Below are positions 18,287 through 25,100 of a stretch of 64,000 nt of DNA, piece after piece. Under the pieces are notes generated by a model. That model was not told where the DNA came from. It made no database searches and worked only from the letters and a program-made list of their open reading frames with translations. Positions within the stretch are counted from its first letter, which is position 1; each line of letters opens with the position of its first letter. The DNA comes from Acidimicrobiia bacterium (GTDB lineage Bacteria > Actinomycetota > Acidimicrobiia > Spongiisociales > ZC4RG35), in assembly GCA_041751055.1 (NCBI GenBank), contig JBGSYD010000011.1:2506-66505 (forward strand), given 5' to 3'. Position numbers and translations under genes: made by a program.

Positions 18287-18312
18287 CATCCGGATCGAGG
18301 GGCGGCGACGAA
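18287..18312 (+). promoter_or_regulatory. Putative SigK-type ECF promoter of heliorhodopsin
   Basis: CATCC-N17-CGAA ending 8 nt before the ATG; same spacing and GGGCGGCG spacer as the motif at 23655-23680. Confidence 0.6.
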
Positions 18313-18320
18313 GAGAAGTT

Positions 18321-19100
18321 ATGACATCGAGCACAGTTCCACCTCAAACACAGCCAAGAACATCACGTCTCCGCTGGTACAACCTGCTTATGGGTTTGCT
18401 TCATGCCGCCCAAGGCTTCGCTGTTTTGGCTTTGGCCAACGACTTCACACTCCCGGTAATTGCGACCTACATGGATGGGCCTCCCGGAGCCGGAACGCCA
18501 TCGGTGGAGCCGGTTTTCGATCTAAGGATCGCATGGGGCGTCGCGGCTTTCCTCTTCCTGTCCGCAATCGCGCACATCGTTATTGCGTCTCCGGGCGTCT
18601 ACACCTGGTATCGCCGCAACCTGGAGAACAACCGCAACTACGCGCGATGGATCGAATACTCGCTGTCGTCCTCGATCATGATCATCTTGATCGCGATGCT
18701 CGTCGGCATCGCCGATATCGCGGCTCTCATTGCTCTCGCCGGCGTCAATGCCTCCATGATCCTGTTCGGCTTGCTCCAGGAGAAGTACGAAAACCCGGGC
18801 CGGGACGTCAGTTGGATTTCATATTGGTTTGGCGTTTTGGCCGGTGCCGTACCGTGGCTGGCAATAGCGTGGTACTTGTTCAGCCCTGGATTCGACGCCA
18901 ACCCTCCCGGATTCGTCTACGGGATATTCGTTTCGCTGTTCGTGTTCTTCAACATCTTCGCAATCGTCATGGTGCTGCAATACAAGAAGGTCGGTAGATG
19001 GGCCAACTACGAATTTGGTGAGTCGACGTATGTGCTGCTGAGCTTGCTGGCGAAGTCCGCCCTCGCCTGGCAGGTGTTCGGCGGCACCCTAGCTGCGTGA
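18321..19100 (+). CDS. heR: Heliorhodopsin
   Basis: 7-TM protein with LHAAQG, AHIV, RWIEYSLSSSIM, NASMILFG and the retinal-binding lysine in LSLLAKSALAWQVF. Confidence 0.95.
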   Translation: MTSSTVPPQTQPRTSRLRWYNLLMGLLHAAQGFAVLALANDFTLPVIATYMDGPPGAGTPSVEPVFDLRIAWGVAAFLFLSAIAHIVIASPGVYTWYRRNLENNRNYARWIEYSLSSSIMIILIAMLVGIADIAALIALAGVNASMILFGLLQEKYENPGRDVSWISYWFGVLAGAVPWLAIAWYLFSPGFDANPPGFVYGIFVSLFVFFNIFAIVMVLQYKKVGRWANYEFGESTYVLLSLLAKSALAWQVFGGTLAA

Positions 19101-19101
19101 C

Positions 19102-20442
19102 TCATTCCCCTCGAGCAGCCTCGTAAGCCTCAATGGCGCGGAGGCGGGCCATGGCATGATCGACCATCGGCTCGGGGTAGTCCTTGCCGAGAACAAAGTT
19201 GTAGCGCGCCAGCTCGTCGCTTCCCCATCCGGCGGGTGAGTGGATTTGGGGAGCGGGTAACCCGGCGAGCTCAGGCACCCATCGTCTGATATATGCACCG
19301 TCTGGATCGAACTTCTTGGATTGGGTCATTGGATTGAAGACGCGGAAGTAAGGGGCTGCATCGGTGCCCACACCGGCCACCCATTGCCAGTTGCCCACGT
19401 TCTGCGGAGTGTCGCCATCGAGCAGGTGGTGACGCAAAAACCGTTCACCGATCCTCCAGTCGACAAGAAGATCCTTGACCAGAAACGAAGCCACGACCAT
19501 ACGGATGCGATTGTGAATCCAACCCTCCCCCTGCAACTGCCTCATTCCGGCGTCAACGATCGGATATCCGGTTCGACCTGATTGCCACGCCGCGATCTGA
19601 TCAGGGTCGTTGATCCACAGCATGGATTCGTAGTCGAAGCGCATTGGCTTGTCCACGCTGTGTGGCCATCTGGCCAAAACGTGGGCGTAGAAGTCACGCC
19701 AGGCCAGCTGTCGTCGAAAGGCAATCCGACCCGGGGTACTCCCTGACGTCCGGTCGAAAACCAGCCGGGGGCCGATCCACCCGTACTTGAGGTCAATTGA
19801 CATATGGCTCGTCGAATCGAGGTCCGGCCGATCCCGTTCCTTGTGGTAGGAATCAATCTTGTTCAGGAAGTCGATGAAACGAGTTGATGCACCGTCTTCA
19901 CCGGCGTGCTCAACTTCTGGAACGTCCGGCAAACCATCACCCACATCGGCGAGCACCCGCGCTTTGCCAGGATCTCCGACCGGGACTACTGGCCGATCGG
20001 ACCATGAGCGGAAGAAGGGTGTGAACACCCGATAGGTGTTTCCGCTACCGGTCAGGATGGATCCCGGTGGATGGATGTAGTTGCCGTCATGGAGATCGAG
20101 GTCGACAAGCCGGCTGATGCGGTCATCCCGACTCGAGCCAAATGGAGTGACGTCACGATTGGCATGGACGATATCGGCCCCTACCCGTGCCACGACGTCA
20201 GGCACCACCCTGGTGGGGTCTCCCCGAAGGACCAGGAGTCGGCCTCCTTGATCGGACAGCCTGGTATCGAGCGATTTGAGCCCTGCGATCAGGTAGGAAC
20301 GGCGGCGGTTCGAAACCGCGTCGTAGAGGTCGGGATCGATTACGAATAGGGCACATACCTCATCGGCTTGCGTGCCCGCCGCCCAAGCAGGATTGTCTTC
20401 CAGTCGGGCATCCCGACGAAACCAAACCACGGACCTCCCCAC
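19102..20442 (-). CDS. phrB: Deoxyribodipyrimidine photolyase (CPD photolyase/cryptochrome family)
   Basis: VWFRRDARLEDNPA, QLAWRDFY, TGYPIVDAGMRQL, GWIHNRIRMVVASFL, NVGNWQWVAG, PYFRVFNP. Confidence 0.93.
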   Translation of the reverse strand: MGRSVVWFRRDARLEDNPAWAAGTQADEVCALFVIDPDLYDAVSNRRRSYLIAGLKSLDTRLSDQGGRLLVLRGDPTRVVPDVVARVGADIVHANRDVTPFGSSRDDRISRLVDLDLHDGNYIHPPGSILTGSGNTYRVFTPFFRSWSDRPVVPVGDPGKARVLADVGDGLPDVPEVEHAGEDGASTRFIDFLNKIDSYHKERDRPDLDSTSHMSIDLKYGWIGPRLVFDRTSGSTPGRIAFRRQLAWRDFYAHVLARWPHSVDKPMRFDYESMLWINDPDQIAAWQSGRTGYPIVDAGMRQLQGEGWIHNRIRMVVASFLVKDLLVDWRIGERFLRHHLLDGDTPQNVGNWQWVAGVGTDAAPYFRVFNPMTQSKKFDPDGAYIRRWVPELAGLPAPQIHSPAGWGSDELARYNFVLGKDYPEPMVDHAMARLRAIEAYEAARGE

Positions 20443-20638: not shown

Positions 20639-21808
20639 TCAATTGCGCAGCGCCCTCCTGTAGAACTCAATTGTCTTGTCGGCGACCGCCTCGATTGTGT
20701 AGAACTCGGTGAACCTGTCCTTGGCAGAGTCAACCAAAGACTTCGCGAGGTCTTTGTCCACAAGCACGCGCGAGATGGCGGCAGCCATTTCGTCCGGAGC
20801 CTCCAACGACACCAGCATGACCACCGGTGTCTCGCCGCCAGCCACTTCGCGAACTGACGGGATATCACTCGCAACGACAGGGACTTCGAGGGCCATTGCC
20901 TCGATCAATACGCCAGGAGACCCCTCTGTTCTCGACGGAACCACCACAACATCGGCAGCACACATCAAGTCGGGCACGTCGGTCCTGTGACCCGCGAATG
21001 TCACGGCTTCGTCGAGCCCGCCGGTGGCCGCGGTCCGTCGAAGGTTGGCTGAGGCCGGACCCTCCCTGCCCGCAATCAAGAGGTGGGCTTCGGGGACGCA
21101 CTCCCTCACACCGGCAAAGGCTGATAACAGAAGATCGAGACCTTTCATGTGGTAATGCCTGCCAGCTGCCATAACAAGTGGCACTTGATCGCCTAGTCCG
21201 AGCGAACGCCGCACGTCGGCCCGTCTTCCCGGAGAGTTAGCGCCGAGCATGCCAAGGTCCCGACCCCGCGGAATCACCTCGACGCGGTCCCGGGGAACTC
21301 GCAGTCGCGTGGCCATTAGATCGGCGCTGCTTGCCGACACGGCATGAAACCTACGGACCAACCTGGCCGTTATTGCGTCCGTCAAGTGCGCGGCTCGTAC
21401 TTTCCAGCGCCGGTACTCAGGGTTGGACAGGTGTTCGGGGCCGTATAACTCGGTGACGAAGCTGGAAACCACAGGTATTCGAGCGAGTCGCGCTGCGACC
21501 CGGGCGGTCACATCGGCTTCGAACAATATCGTGTGAACAAGGTCCGGACGCAGCGACCTGAGCAATTTGAGTCCTCGAAATACGGCCATGATGCGACCCC
21601 CGCCACCTGCGATGCTGTGCAATGAAACTCCACTAGCGTCGAGGCTTCCGCCCACCCCCACACGGTCCACCAGGTAGGCCACGTGGAGATCGATGCCGTC
21701 CTTGACCAGGTAGGGAGCCACCATCGCCAGAGACTGTTCGGCACCGCCAACAGCAAGGCTATCGATGACGATCAATATTCTGAGCCGAGCATTTATCGAA
21801 CGTTTCAC
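20639..21808 (-). CDS. GT4-family glycosyltransferase
   Basis: IDSLAVGGAEQ, KGLDLL, PSRTEGSPGVLIEAMA, VVASDIP. Confidence 0.9.
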   Translation of the reverse strand: MKRSINARLRILIVIDSLAVGGAEQSLAMVAPYLVKDGIDLHVAYLVDRVGVGGSLDASGVSLHSIAGGGGRIMAVFRGLKLLRSLRPDLVHTILFEADVTARVAARLARIPVVSSFVTELYGPEHLSNPEYRRWKVRAAHLTDAITARLVRRFHAVSASSADLMATRLRVPRDRVEVIPRGRDLGMLGANSPGRRADVRRSLGLGDQVPLVMAAGRHYHMKGLDLLLSAFAGVRECVPEAHLLIAGREGPASANLRRTAATGGLDEAVTFAGHRTDVPDLMCAADVVVVPSRTEGSPGVLIEAMALEVPVVASDIPSVREVAGGETPVVMLVSLEAPDEMAAAISRVLVDKDLAKSLVDSAKDRFTEFYTIEAVADKTIEFYRRALRN

Positions 21809-22776
21809 GCCTGGTGCTCATGCCTTCGGACTCGTTGAGCTAGATCGGACATGGTCAGGTTTTCGAGGAGGCCCTCGTCGATGCCCTTGCGGGCTTCCTC
21901 AAACAGAACTTCGAAGGCTCGGCGCGATCTCCGCGGGTGCCCCGCGAGATTGTGGCTGTGGAACCACATGTGGAAGAGCGAAGACGTCCGAACTGCGCCA
22001 CGGAGGCGTCGGCGCACGACCCGACCCCAGAGTTCATCGCCCAGCCGGTCGGCGGTTTTCGAACCGGGATTGAAGAGGTACGTCTGAGGGATCGCCACCA
22101 GATCGCCCTTGATCTCGGGGCGGAATGCGCCGGAACGAAGGGGGCGAACCCGATCCATAGCTAGGGCCATCTTCTTCAGTGGGGGCGACATCTGTGTGAA
22201 ACGATCGGGTGTGTGACTCCGATAAGCCAAGAATCCCGCTTCGGCGAGAAGTCCCAGATGCCCTATCGAGTTGCGCGGAAACACGTATGACATCAGGTTC
22301 AGACCGCTCTCCGCGGCAGCGCTCAAGCAAGCCTCGAGATCGGAGCGAAAGGCCTCCTCAGTGCAACCCTCGTCGCCGGCGATGACATGCCCGAACGAGT
22401 GCGAGGCGAGCTCGTGTGGTATGTGGCTCTCTCTGATCCTCGCGACCAGATCAGGGCCATACCAGGTGGGGTCGTCGGTGAGCGACGTGCCGGGGTCGAG
22501 GTCGTACCAGTCACCGGCGAACCACGAATAATCGGGCCGCACTATTTCCGGATGTTTCATTCCGGTGGATTGTCCACATCGGGGCAAGAAGAGATGGCCT
22601 ACCACGGCCCAAGTCGCCGAAATCTCGTACTCTTCCATCACCTCGAGCAATTCGGCCACCACCCGCCGCTCTTCGAGATAGGGCGACCTGTCATGTGGTG
22701 AACCATGGTGAACTGCGCCCCACGACATCTCGAGATCGATCGATATTACGAAGGCGGCTGCCCCATCTAAGACCAT
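21805..22776 (-). CDS. Polysaccharide deacetylase family protein
   Basis: FVISIDLEMSWG, ATWAVVG, ELASHSFGH, SYVFPRN, FHMWFHSHN. Confidence 0.8.
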   Translation of the reverse strand: MVLDGAAAFVISIDLEMSWGAVHHGSPHDRSPYLEERRVVAELLEVMEEYEISATWAVVGHLFLPRCGQSTGMKHPEIVRPDYSWFAGDWYDLDPGTSLTDDPTWYGPDLVARIRESHIPHELASHSFGHVIAGDEGCTEEAFRSDLEACLSAAAESGLNLMSYVFPRNSIGHLGLLAEAGFLAYRSHTPDRFTQMSPPLKKMALAMDRVRPLRSGAFRPEIKGDLVAIPQTYLFNPGSKTADRLGDELWGRVVRRRLRGAVRTSSLFHMWFHSHNLAGHPRRSRRAFEVLFEEARKGIDEGLLENLTMSDLAQRVRRHEHQA

Positions 22777-22986: not shown

Positions 22987-23541
22987 TCAACCTGCTGCAA
23001 GGTCGGACATCGAGACTGCAAGTCTTTTCATTCCAGTGCGAATTCGGCTTTTCACCGTACCTTCGGGTGCTCCTAACCGACGAGCAACCTCGACGTAGCT
23101 CAGGCCCTCGAGGTAGGCCAGGGAAATTGCCTCCCTCTCGCCGTCCGGGAGGTCGTTCAGAGCGGCTCGCACATTCTCGGAGATCGTAAGGGCCCAAACG
23201 TCGTCGACGACGTCAGAATGATCCCGGTCAGGTGGTTTAAGCTCCCGCCGGGACCGAGCGACTTCGGAGCGGACGGCGTCGACCGCCCTGCGATGGGCAA
23301 TAGTCACCAGGAAGTTGCGAAGCGATCCGCGTCTGGCATCAAATCTTTCCGGTGCGTCCCAAAATCGAAAGAACGTGTCCTGAACCACGTCTTCGGCGAG
23401 CGTTGGATTGTGAAGCACCCTTCGAGCAACCGATCTGACCGCTCCTCCGTGTTCTCCCATCACGGTCTCCATTGCGGCCTCATCGCCCCTCAAGACAAGG
23501 TCGGCTAGCGCCTTGTCGCGTTCATCAACTCCGACCATCAA
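22987..23541 (-). CDS. ECF RNA polymerase sigma factor, SigK-like
   Basis: AEDVVQDTF..FW..PERFD..RGS, AHRRAVDAVRSE, LAYLEGLSYVEVA..LG...GTVKSRIR; the AHRRAVDxVR signature is shared with mycobacterial SigK. Confidence 0.85.
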   Translation of the reverse strand: MMVGVDERDKALADLVLRGDEAAMETVMGEHGGAVRSVARRVLHNPTLAEDVVQDTFFRFWDAPERFDARRGSLRNFLVTIAHRRAVDAVRSEVARSRRELKPPDRDHSDVVDDVWALTISENVRAALNDLPDGEREAISLAYLEGLSYVEVARRLGAPEGTVKSRIRTGMKRLAVSMSDLAAG

Positions 23542-23653: not shown

Positions 23654-23680
23654 CCATCCGACGCACTGGGCGGCGCCGAA
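23654..23680 (+). promoter_or_regulatory. Putative SigK-type ECF promoter
   Basis: CCATCC-N16-CCGAA ending 6 nt before ATG 23687. Confidence 0.62.
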
Positions 23681-23686
23681 CCAGAC

Positions 23687-24061
23687 ATGATGGGTAACAG
23701 AATCGCAATCATCGGCACCGGTATTTCCGGCCTCGGGGCAGCCTGGGGGCTCCATGCAGATAACGAAATCACCGTTTATGAAGCGGCCGATCGTTTGGGC
23801 GGGCACTCCAACACCATCAAGGTCGACACGCCTCTGGGAGAAACGTCCGTCGATACCGGTTTCATTGTCTATAACAATGAGACCTACCCAAATCTTTCCC
23901 GGCTATTTGCCAAACTCGAAGTCGCGACCGAGCCCAGCGACATGTCCTTCTCATATTCAGTTGACGGCGACTTCGAATACGGGGCAAGCCTTTCTCTGTG
24001 CGAGGCTGGGTTCCGGCTGGGCCGGATAAATGTAGAACAGTGGAGTTTCTCCCGACCATGA
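23687..24061 (+). pseudogene. Truncated FAD-dependent oxidoreductase (Rv0449c/UfaD-like amine-oxidase family)
   Basis: IAIIGTGISGL.AAW.L, EAADRLGGHSNT, VDTGFIVYN..TYPNL, SDMSFS; similarity ends near 23990 after about 100 aa, whereas intact family members are >400 aa. Confidence 0.8.
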
Positions 24062-24098
24062 AGCGATACTCCCGCTTGTTCAATATCGTGACCAATCC

Positions 24099-25100
24099 AT
24101 GATCGGCAACGACACACCGGATCGCCTCGCCGCACGCCTCGGCGTGATGGCGGCTGCGATTGCGGGTGACTCGGGCGGGCTCTATCAACTGGTTGCAAGG
24201 CTGTTGGACGACGGCGTGCCCCTCGACGTCATTCTCTTCGACATTCTCATTCCCACCGAAAGAGATGTGGGCCAGCGCTGGCAGCAGGGTGACGTGCTCA
24301 TCTCGGAGGAACATGCCGCCACAGCGACCATGGAGACGGTTGTCTCCCTGATCGCGGGATCCTTCGATCCATCGGATAACGGTCCCCGAATAGTGATTGC
24401 GGCAGCCGAAGGAGATGACCATTCTCTTCCGGGGCGCCTGATTGCGGCCCACCTGCTTTTCCTCGGCTACCGGACGGCATACCTGGGTGGCAACGTCAAG
24501 GCCTCAGATCTGGCGGAATATCTCCAGGGCGAACCGGCTGATGCAGTTGTTCTCTCTTGCGCCCTGCCCACACATCTGATTGGTGCGCGTTCGTCGATCC
24601 AGGTAAGCCATCATGCAGGGGTCCCTGTTGTCGCCGGGGGCAATGGGTTTGGCCCGGGTGGGGTCTGGGCCACGCCGTTGGGGGCAGACGTATGGGTTCC
24701 GACTCCCCGGCAGGTGTCAGAGACTCTGGAATCGTGGAATCCGGACCCCGCGACTTCGGAAGCCCGAGCAGTTGATATGACTTCCGACGTCGCCGCACTC
24801 ATCAATCGCCGGATGAGAATCGTGTCATCCGCCCAGGACCACGTCGCGGCCGGAGGCAATCAATACCCCGATCGGGAAACCACCGACGAGATCGATCATC
24901 TTCTGAGTGCTGTGGGAGCGGCGATGTTTGTTGGCGATTCGGCTCTGTTGTCGGCCGAAATCAAATGGCAACAAGCGATGCTCGCTGCTCACAGCAGAAC
25001 CGACTCGGATCAAATTGTCGAGGCGATGGTCGCCGCTCTGGAGTTGGAATCGCCCCTGGCTGCTGAGTTCATGCAGGCGACAATCCGGGCCAAATCCTGA
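24099..25100 (+). CDS. Cobalamin (B12)-binding domain protein, CarH/AerR-like W-x9-EH, no DNA-binding domain
   Basis: Four-helix cap with VGQRWQQGDVLISEEH, Rossmann B12 domain EGDDHSLPG...YLGGNV...VVLSC...GG, extra helical C-terminal domain. Confidence 0.85.
   Translation: MIGNDTPDRLAARLGVMAAAIAGDSGGLYQLVARLLDDGVPLDVILFDILIPTERDVGQRWQQGDVLISEEHAATATMETVVSLIAGSFDPSDNGPRIVIAAAEGDDHSLPGRLIAAHLLFLGYRTAYLGGNVKASDLAEYLQGEPADAVVLSCALPTHLIGARSSIQVSHHAGVPVVAGGNGFGPGGVWATPLGADVWVPTPRQVSETLESWNPDPATSEARAVDMTSDVAALINRRMRIVSSAQDHVAAGGNQYPDRETTDEIDHLLSAVGAAMFVGDSALLSAEIKWQQAMLAAHSRTDSDQIVEAMVAALELESPLAAEFMQATIRAKS

Follow-up and report, generated by a model that had tools for sequence, protein, structure and literature searches.

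The window analyzed here is a 64,000-nucleotide stretch of contig JBGSYD010000011.1 from an Acidimicrobiia bacterium (GenBank assembly GCA_041751055.1; positions 2,506 to 66,505 of the forward strand, renumbered from 1), and its subject is a gene for a 333-amino-acid (aa) protein that is almost certainly a stand-alone photocobilin, i.e., a CarH-type adenosylcobalamin (AdoCbl) module joined to a photoglobin domain, without an enzyme or DNA-binding output. The gene order across the locus is heliorhodopsin, photolyase, two minus-strand genes (for a GT4 glycosyltransferase and for a polysaccharide-deacetylase-like protein), a sigma factor of the extracytoplasmic function (ECF) type, an open reading frame (ORF) with the N terminus of an amine oxidase, the photocobilin, and an acyltransferase. 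The conserved position of the photocobilin gene beside this stress sigma factor suggests that the photocobilin signals light to the sigma factor. The photocobilin gene and its domains are the following.

24099..25100, plus strand: stand-alone photocobilin gene, 333 aa (ORF, phmmer, AlphaFold2 (AF2), and Foldseek)
24150..24350, plus strand: four-helix-bundle B12-binding_2 domain, aa 18-84 (Pfam PF02607); W61 at 24279-24281, E71-H72 at 24309-24314
24387..24683, plus strand: Rossmann-type B12-binding domain, aa 97-195 (Pfam PF02310); H108 at 24420-24422
24711..25097, plus strand: C-terminal helical photoglobin (bilin-binding-type) domain, aa ~205-333 (AF2, Foldseek); E264 at 24888-24890, W290 at 24966-24968

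Two Pfam domains were found in the protein, B12-binding_2 (aa 18-84, E 9e-12) and B12-binding (aa 97-195, E 3e-11), both above the gathering scores and in the order known from photocobilins, with a four-helix bundle followed by a Rossmann B12 domain; in the AF2 model the bundle opens the protein at aa 7. No helix-turn-helix (HTH) or MerR domain was detected in the Pfam scan, and the protein thus lacks the DNA-binding N terminus of CarH and LitR. The segment WQQGDVLISEEH contains W61-x9-E71-H72, and H108, within GDDHSLPG, occupies the position of the lower axial ligand. These four residues were invariant in 28 homologues and in about 80 related loci, and they align residue by residue with the same-numbered residues of the photocobilin SasPcob, the numbering of the two proteins coinciding across the B12 module (paper numbering, PMC10979010).

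Taken alone, the C-terminal domain matched no Pfam family even at E≤10. The AF2 model (mean predicted local distance difference test score, pLDDT, 95.2; predicted template modeling score, pTM, 0.92) shows helices at about aa 205-332, and the top phmmer matches in the PDB, 8J2W and 8J2X (E 5e-41), extended over aa 11-304 and thus included this domain, followed by 8J2Y (E 4e-28). CarH reached merely E 1e-12 in the same search and was confined to aa 14-197. Likewise, Foldseek aligned the AF2 model over its full length to 8J2W, 8J2X, and 8J2Y (template modeling score, TM, 0.83-0.84; 330-337 alignment columns), while CarH B12 domains covered the N-terminal 200 aa of the query only. The C-terminal domain is therefore of the photoglobin type, with five globin-like helices that pack against both subdomains of the B12 module, by sequence alignment to aa 304, by the AF2 model, and by the full-length structural match. 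The top NCBIfam match of the protein was CarH, restricted to the B12 part of CarH.

Photocobilins, defined in 2022 and 2024 with crystal structures included, are CarH-like AdoCbl domains fused to a biliverdin-binding "photoglobin" domain (Zhang et al. 2024, PMC10979010), and an earlier study had predicted the photoglobin domain as well as its almost obligatory association with B12-binding domains (PMC8717448). Stand-alone photocobilins regulate through protein-protein interaction in vitro, and their natural function "is less clear" according to the authors (PMC10979010). An initial sequence-only reading of this DNA had described the gene product as a CarH-type B12-binding protein with the W-x9-EH motif and the lower-ligand His, without a DNA-binding domain and with an extra helical C-terminal domain. 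Each of these features was confirmed by the Pfam domains, the residue conservation, and the AF2 helices, and the Foldseek search it had proposed, run here with the full model, led to the photocobilins with the C-terminal domain included. What did not hold was the unclassified status of the protein, since it belongs to the known family of stand-alone photocobilins.

To this family we could assign 583 clusters at E≤1e-30 in a profile search of 1.84 billion representative proteins, and most of them were stand-alone proteins of about 330 aa. Among the longer proteins in the best 150 of the 583, the fusion partners were GGDEF, PAS-GGDEF-EAL, GAF-HTH_17/MerR, and GAF-ANTAR. Close homologues (P0002, P0006, P0017, and others) carry the automatic names "methanogenic corrinoid protein MtbC1" or "MerR family ... 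light-induced transcriptional regulator"; both names are misleading, and neither suits the domain content.

Homology makes AdoCbl binding and photolysis by the 333-aa protein likely, and a function as a photoreceptor is highly probable, with cofactor binding and photochemistry extrapolated from its relatives. Four light-response signatures have been described for cobalamin-binding domains, GxxW, EH, GxxH, and GxxxP (SignatureFinder, PMC11796333). Three are present in the window protein (G58-x2-W61, E71-H72, and G105-x2-H108), and the fourth site reads G130-x3-K134; among 80 relatives, 47 have Pro and 24 have Leu at the proline position, and the window protein alone has Lys. W61 is followed by Q62, so that the equivalent of TtCarH His132, the His of the bis-His light state, is absent. 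SasPcob is likewise without this His, and its light state is water- or hydroxide-ligated (PMC10979010). Because neither SasPcob nor the window protein has a His beside the Trp, a bis-His, CarH-like light state is not expected.

The bilin site was compared with SasPcob by counting back, in an ungapped register, from the shared Trp (W290 here, W296 in SasPcob). E264 then sits where SasPcob has its biliverdin ligand D270, and the same register gives His at this site in the photocobilin AbPcob, in agreement with the published statement. Position 264 was Glu in 42 of the 47 members of the clade to which the window protein belongs (see below) and Asp in 18 of 30 sequences outside it. A second difference lies at residue 137, where the window protein has an Asp that is nearly invariant in the related group, in place of the SasPcob His137 that salt-bridges the bilin propionate from the partner monomer (PMC10979010). 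Compared with SasPcob, the site thus keeps its Trp (W290), with Asp270 replaced by Glu264 and His137 by Asp137. AbPcob, with His at the bilin site, still binds biliverdin, weakly (PMC10979010); the window protein may bind it as well, although Glu264 in place of the key Asp makes this uncertain.

The second component of the locus is the divergently oriented sigma factor gene.

22987..23541, minus strand: SigK/LitS-type ECF sigma gene, divergent from the photocobilin side, without cysteines or a downstream anti-sigma gene (Pfam Sigma70_r2 and r4_2)

In sequence, this sigma factor is nearest to SigK. Its top PDB match was SigK of Mycobacterium tuberculosis (4NQW, E 8e-24; next match 5e-14), and it carries the AHRRAVDxVR motif of the SigK/LitS type (ECF18/19). 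SigK was also the top NCBIfam match, with 142 bits under a subfamily cut-off of 226. The likeness to LitS is drawn from the promoter motif described below. Both redox cysteines of SigK are missing, C133 being replaced by S92, and the conserved sigma core contained no cysteines in any of 38 orthologues, with or without an anti-sigma factor.

To place the two genes in a wider context, one genome per GTDB species was scanned, giving 80 related loci, nearly all from Acidimicrobiia metagenome-assembled genomes, and a photocobilin clade of 47 that includes the window protein was taken from a neighbor-joining tree. An orthologous sigma gene (55-68% identity) lay upstream on the opposite strand in 36 of the 47 clade loci, compared to none of 31 loci outside the clade. 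The remaining clade loci comprised two in which the sigma gene was cut at the contig end, seven with a flank too short to judge, and two truly without the sigma gene (at least 7.5 kb of flank). Sister clades of the same family had no sigma gene close by, and their contexts varied. This linkage is far beyond chance adjacency, and the sigma gene was the sole neighbor retained across the clade.

The two genes were directly divergent in about 25 loci, with a spacing of 83-220 bp, and in the other linked loci one or two plus-strand operons (amine oxidase-DUF1365-cyclopropane synthase; DUF4397-sortase) stood between them. Since the linkage was kept despite these inserted operons, it has outlived many rearrangements. 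Of the 80 loci, 12 had a co-oriented heliorhodopsin gene directly 3' of the photocobilin gene, and about 8 others, like the window, had one elsewhere within 10 kb. From gene calls and Pfam, L081 has the sigma gene divergent from photocobilin-heliorhodopsin and L082 has photolyase-sigma divergent from the photocobilin, both without an anti-sigma gene; the MoaC-MoeA flank of L082 shows synteny with the window.

The sequence-only reading had noted that RskA is missing here. This was borne out: no anti-sigma gene follows the sigma gene in the window, no HxxxCxxC motif occurs in a three-frame translation of the 210 bp downstream, and when 20 RskA or short anti-sigma sequences from related loci were used as tblastn queries, none matched in this 210-bp gap. 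Among the 38 sigma-linked loci, 12 had a transmembrane RskA, 15 (the window included) had no anti-sigma gene, and 11 had a soluble protein of 70-85 aa directly downstream of the sigma gene (L009, L028, L029, L030, L036, L044, L047, L049, L051, L057, and L059). The latter proteins consist of the zf-HC2/RskA N-terminal domain (HxxxCxxC) alone, the membrane and outer portions of RskA being absent. The absence of an anti-sigma gene is a recurrent, lineage-specific loss (15/38); L002, without an anti-sigma gene, has a near-identical relative, L006, that keeps RskA, indicating that the loss in L002 was recent and that such losses recur.

The further proposal that the photocobilin fills the role of the missing RskA did not generalize, as 23 of the 38 sigma-linked loci retain RskA or a soluble anti-sigma domain. 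Pfam found neither zf-HC2 nor RskA_N in the photocobilin and did recognize the true RskA and the short zf-HC2 proteins of related loci. The photocobilin does not belong to the class I family of anti-sigma factors, yet it could act in an anti-sigma-like manner.

We then considered the promoters of the locus, for which the window contains three candidate elements.

23656..23681, plus strand: SigK/LitS-type promoter-like site ATCCGACGCACTGGGCGGCGCCGAAC, 5 nucleotides (nt) before the ATG at 23687 (position weight matrix, PWM, 18.6 bits, top of the 64-kb window)
18288..18313, plus strand: weaker promoter-like site of the SigK/LitS type, 7 nt upstream of the ATG of the heliorhodopsin gene (PWM 13.0 bits, second in the window)
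24084..24089, plus strand: candidate -10 hexamer of the housekeeping type, TATCGT (TANNNT), 9 nt upstream of the ATG of the photocobilin gene (sequence only)

The motif ATCCG-N15-(C/T)TCCGAA(T/C) recurred 5-10 nt before the start codons of the first genes in neighboring operons of the related loci. Scored with the PWM against the 98th-percentile background, it preceded DUF4397 in 13 of 13 loci, heliorhodopsin in 9 of 16 (L013, L018, L024, L035, L037, and L063 are among those carrying it), amine oxidase in 7 of 14, NmrA-DUF2867 in 7 of 12, and SRPBCC in 4 of 10, and it stood before the sigma gene itself in 5 of 38. No internal operon gene among DUF1365, cyclopropane-fatty-acid (CFA) synthase, SDR, and RskA was preceded by the motif, and the sortase gene was in 1 of 14 loci. 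Shuffled windows gave 0-1 sites at ≥11 bits. In the site at 23656-23681, a G directly precedes CCGAA.

In Streptomyces, the B12 photoreceptor LitR has LitS as its ECF sigma partner, the litR and litS genes share bidirectional promoters, and the LitS-dependent promoter consensus is GCATCCR-N15-CVGAAD (PMC11519972). The motif of the loci studied here is identical in form to this consensus. Given its position and the parallels with LitS and SigK, we infer that the motif is probably recognized by the neighboring sigma factor. Heliorhodopsin usually has a sigma-type promoter of its own and therefore looks like a target of the sigma factor, which suggests that it belongs to an ECF sigma regulon together with photo-oxidative-stress genes.

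The photocobilin gene differed from these operons in that the motif preceded it in only 3 of 79 loci. A TANNNT element, mostly gCTAGCCT (also gCTACGCT), was instead found about 22 nt before the gene in 26 of 40 loci, compared to 3.9% of random windows. We infer that the photocobilin gene is mostly under its own housekeeping-type promoter, the pattern of a constitutively made sensor within a sigma-driven regulon. From TATCGT in the window, a leaderless or near-leaderless photocobilin transcript would be predicted.

An independent parallel emerged when metagenome contigs were scanned with a profile of the sigma factor. Among the matches listed, most were SigK-RskA pairs (40-53% identity) without a photocobilin. 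In L133 and L136, however, where the sigma factor is 41-42% identical, a 270-aa protein with the domains HTH_17, B12-binding_2, and B12-binding as well as the W-x9-EH motif is encoded divergently from sigK-rskA-SDR-amine oxidase-DUF1365-CFA synthase.

L136:810-1622 and L133:1562-2377, minus strand: HTH_17-B12 protein, CarH-like with an excisionase-type HTH (Pfam)

This looks like a LitR-LitS arrangement placed on a SigK operon in another lineage, and the DNA-binding B12 photoreceptor fills the spot that is held by the photocobilin in the window clade.

The remaining genes at the window locus include a remnant of a regulon operon.

18321..19100, plus strand: heliorhodopsin gene (Pfam PF18761, E 5e-100)
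19102..20442, minus strand: DNA photolyase gene, co-oriented with the sigma gene, which it directly follows in L082 (Pfam DNA_photolyase and FAD_binding_7)
20639-22776, minus strand: polysaccharide-deacetylase-like and GT4 glycosyltransferase genes between sigma and photolyase, an insertion relative to L082; all four genes on the same strand
23687..24061, plus strand: chimeric remnant ORF of 124 aa, amine oxidase N terminus and CFA synthase C terminus (blastp against neighbors, Pfam)

Residues 2-102 of the chimera match the N terminus of the flavin amine oxidase of relatives (62-72% identity), and residues 102-123 match the last 22 residues of their CFA synthase (77-86% identity). The chimera is the scar of an in-frame deletion of about 2.9 kb in the amine oxidase-DUF1365-CFA synthase operon, with the breakpoint at 23988/23989. 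The junction was spanned by independent contigs of metagenomes from hot springs and beach sand, and in two hot-spring runs minor contigs joined at 23989 with an upstream sequence translating as DRFHRMWGLY, which is intact synthase sequence, indicating that deleted and undeleted strains coexist. The deletion moves the photocobilin gene directly behind the strongest sigma-type promoter of the window. The sigma and photocobilin ORFs are intact, and every invariant family residue is retained. Hot-spring metagenomes contained near-identical sequence (98% and 92% of the words sampled), and metagenomes of beach sand and soil contained part of it; these sources are all light-exposed, which fits a light sensor. 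An exact search of the assembly collection for the window protein retrieved no record, and no RNA runs holding the locus were found.

The linkage and the promoter motif with its distribution are direct observations, and together with the L133/L136 parallel they favor the idea, already put forward in the sequence-only reading, that the protein is a partner of the sigma factor; the mirror-tree and fusion searches described below gave no evidence of contact. We consider functional coupling of the photocobilin and the sigma factor somewhat more probable than its absence. That the adjacent SigK/LitS-type sigma module is the actual output of the photocobilin is our best overall explanation, adopted tentatively. 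Since the photocobilin has no DNA-binding domain, protein contact would be the simplest mechanism, and direct contact is possible, with our judgment leaning slightly against it. As 15 of 38 sigma-linked loci, spread over several subclades, have an intact photocobilin and no anti-sigma gene, an anti-sigma factor cannot be the sole target, and the sigma factors of these loci need some other control. Action on the sigma factor is further favored by the 11 loci whose soluble anti-sigma domains are sensor-less and would need a cytoplasmic release signal.

In the mechanism we propose, the photocobilin, a cytoplasmic photoreceptor, would bind AdoCbl in the base-off/His-on form, with H108 as the ligand and the adenosyl group held by W61 and E71-H72, and a dark head-to-tail dimer would dissociate to monomers upon cleavage of the Co-C bond by light, both by analogy with SasPcob. 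The protein would be made from its own housekeeping-type promoter, and one of its two light states would bind the sigma factor itself; in relatives with an anti-sigma factor, the cytoplasmic domain of the latter could be a further binding partner. The activity of the sigma factor would in this way be set by light, and the sigma factor would transcribe a light and photo-oxidative-stress regulon from ATCCG-N15-CCGAAT promoters. This regulon would comprise heliorhodopsin, amine oxidase-DUF1365-cyclopropane synthase, SRPBCC-SDR, DUF4397-sortase, and NmrA-DUF2867, with photolyase in some genomes.

A more far-reaching version is that the photocobilin is a light-gated regulator acting directly on an ECF sigma factor or a cytoplasmic anti-sigma domain, the first B12 (possibly bilin) photoreceptor to control a sigma factor post-translationally. 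It would then replace the DNA-binding LitR-type control of Streptomyces and of L133/L136 and bring heliorhodopsin, photolyase, and membrane-lipid-modifying enzymes into one light-switched SigK/LitS-type regulon in Acidimicrobiia. We regard this complete version as doubtful.

Several observations weigh against an output through the sigma factor. A conventional anti-sigma factor, able to regulate the sigma factor alone, is kept in 23 of the 38 sigma-linked loci. Loss of RskA and constitutive activity are known from SigK proteins that lack the two redox cysteines, a Nocardia example being active without RskA (PMC7509140), and because a cysteine-less SigK can behave in this way, the orphan sigma factor would be explicable without the photocobilin. 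On the photoreceptor side, the GxxxP signature is not matched and E264 stands in for D270. The best 150 of the 583 profile matches included no fusion to a sigma or anti-sigma domain. The distance matrices of sigma and photocobilin correlated with r 0.70 over the 38 loci, within the range of other neighbor pairs (0.39-0.94), and the mirror-tree test therefore does not discriminate. Finally, a core regulon operon is deleted in this genome, and the module may be decaying.

A rival explanation is that the photocobilin is a functional photoreceptor with another target, and that its linkage to the sigma gene reflects a "light-response island" of jointly moving genes for use in the light, namely heliorhodopsin, photolyase, membrane-lipid modification genes, sigma factor, and photoreceptor. 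The target could then be the adjacent heliorhodopsin, a regulon enzyme, or an unlinked partner such as a diguanylate cyclase; stand-alone SasPcob did modulate an unrelated diguanylate cyclase domain in vitro (PMC10979010). The heliorhodopsin gene directly downstream on the same strand in 12 of 80 loci, the sister clades with varied contexts and no nearby sigma gene, the mirror-tree signal within background, and the failure to find fusions in the best 150 of 583 matches all fit such an island. However, only the sigma gene was retained clade-wide (36/47), heliorhodopsin being directly downstream in just those 12 loci and usually having a sigma-type promoter of its own, hence looking like a sigma target, and a divergent pairing of a B12 photoreceptor with an ECF sigma factor recurs in L133, L136, and the Streptomyces LitR-LitS pair. 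We therefore consider an island with a different target unlikely.

A less probable explanation still is that the module is degenerating in this genome, with a constitutive or idle sigma factor and a photocobilin that may sense light yet control nothing at the locus. The in-frame 2.9-kb deletion that fused amine oxidase to CFA synthase, polymorphic in the source populations, would fit this, as would the missing anti-sigma gene, the frequent lack of RskA with cysteine-less SigK proteins, including the active one of Nocardia (PMC7509140), and the Lys that the window protein alone has at the GxxxP proline position. Evidence against decay comes from two intact ORFs that keep all invariant family residues, from a deletion that sets the photocobilin gene directly behind the strongest sigma-type promoter of the window, and from 14 other loci in several subclades that lack an anti-sigma gene and have both genes intact. 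That the protein is no photoreceptor at all, and instead a corrinoid carrier working with a methyltransferase or a dark B12-status sensor, is highly improbable, since the Joint Genome Institute (JGI) source names of homologues ("methanogenic corrinoid protein MtbC1") and low-scoring hits to the NCBIfam families MtbC, MtgC, and MtaC (19-33 bits against cut-offs of 215-450, with CarH the best match) are outweighed by the invariant, photoreceptor-specific W-x9-EH motif, the full-length structural match to photocobilins, and an aerobic-type Acidimicrobiia lineage from lit habitats. The identity of a corrinoid methyl carrier was rejected on these scores, far under the cut-offs, and on the absence of a methyltransferase among the conserved neighbors.

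An output through the SigK/LitS-type sigma factor thus remained our preferred reading, and the locus with its sigma-linked relatives (36 clade loci) offers a concrete candidate output for stand-alone photocobilins. The protein class is known and structurally characterized; the link to a sigma factor is plausible and apparently undescribed. In the literature searched, which was incomplete, we found no earlier description of a photocobilin, or of another B12 protein lacking a DNA-binding domain, linked to an ECF sigma factor, and none of heliorhodopsin behind a LitS/SigK-type promoter or of a B12 domain linked to heliorhodopsin.

If the link is real, stand-alone photocobilins gain a first natural target and SigK-type sigma factors a defined input, and the control of SigK proteins that have no anti-sigma factor, or a sensor-less one, would be explained. 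Heliorhodopsin, whose function is still debated, would be tied to a light-induced stress regulon. B12 photoreceptors would then have been wired twice to one sigma family, by DNA binding and by protein contact, and synthetic biology would gain a compact transcription switch made of two proteins and operated by green/red light. Should there be no such link, the protein is an ordinary additional member of a known photoreceptor family; the interest of the locus rests on the testable hypothesis rather than on the protein class.

Of the known systems, SasPcob from Saccharothrix syringae (PDB 8J2W dark, 8J2X light; PMC10979010) is the closest to the window protein, with the same length and the same succession of four-helix bundle, Rossmann B12 domain, and five-helix photoglobin domain (31% identity, E 5e-41, TM 0.83-0.84). 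SasPcob W296, which contacts both chromophores, corresponds to W290. The two proteins differ at Asp270 (Glu264 in the window), His137 (Asp137), and the GxxxP proline (Lys134), and also in context: network analysis connected SasPcob to the partner-switching proteins STAS, SpoIIE, and PP2C (PMC10979010), whereas the window clade is linked to a SigK/LitS-type ECF sigma factor. AbDPcob (PDB 8J2Y), from an Acidimicrobiaceae bacterium and thus from the same bacterial class as the window, is a fusion of a photocobilin to a diguanylate cyclase. It shares the photoreceptor module (E 4e-28, TM 0.83) and likewise has its bilin-site Asp replaced, by His, with weak biliverdin binding, but it carries a GGDEF output that is light-activated >10-fold (PMC10979010), which the window protein, without an output domain, does not have.

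LitR-LitS of Streptomyces resembles the window clade in that the gene of an AdoCbl photoreceptor is divergently paired with that of an ECF sigma factor, and LitR as well as CarH of Thermus and Myxococcus share the W-x9-EH motif and the His ligand of the B12 domain with the window protein. LitR and CarH have an N-terminal MerR-type DNA-binding domain and act on promoters, whereas the window protein has a photoglobin domain instead; with no DNA-binding domain, its control of a sigma factor would be post-translational. AerR/PpaA of purple bacteria also bind B12 without having a DNA-binding domain, and they work by binding another regulator. Their partner is the CrtJ/PpsR repressor, for which there is no gene among the conserved neighbors of the window clade; they have no photoglobin domain, and both sequence and structure searches group the window protein with the photocobilins instead.

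The closest solved relative of the window sigma factor is SigK of the M. tuberculosis SigK-RskA pair (4NQW), and anti-sigma factors of the RskA type occur in 12 of the related loci. The amine oxidase-DUF1365-cyclopropane synthase operon beside sigK corresponds in gene content to Rv0449c-Rv0447c. Autoregulation of SigK through the Rv0449c promoter has been mentioned (PMC7509140). The sigma factors of the window clade are unlike SigK in having no redox cysteines and an anti-sigma factor that is absent (15/38) or soluble-only (11/38). Unlike that of M. tuberculosis SigK, the predicted regulon of the window clade includes heliorhodopsin, and a photoreceptor gene is the conserved neighbor of its sigma factor.

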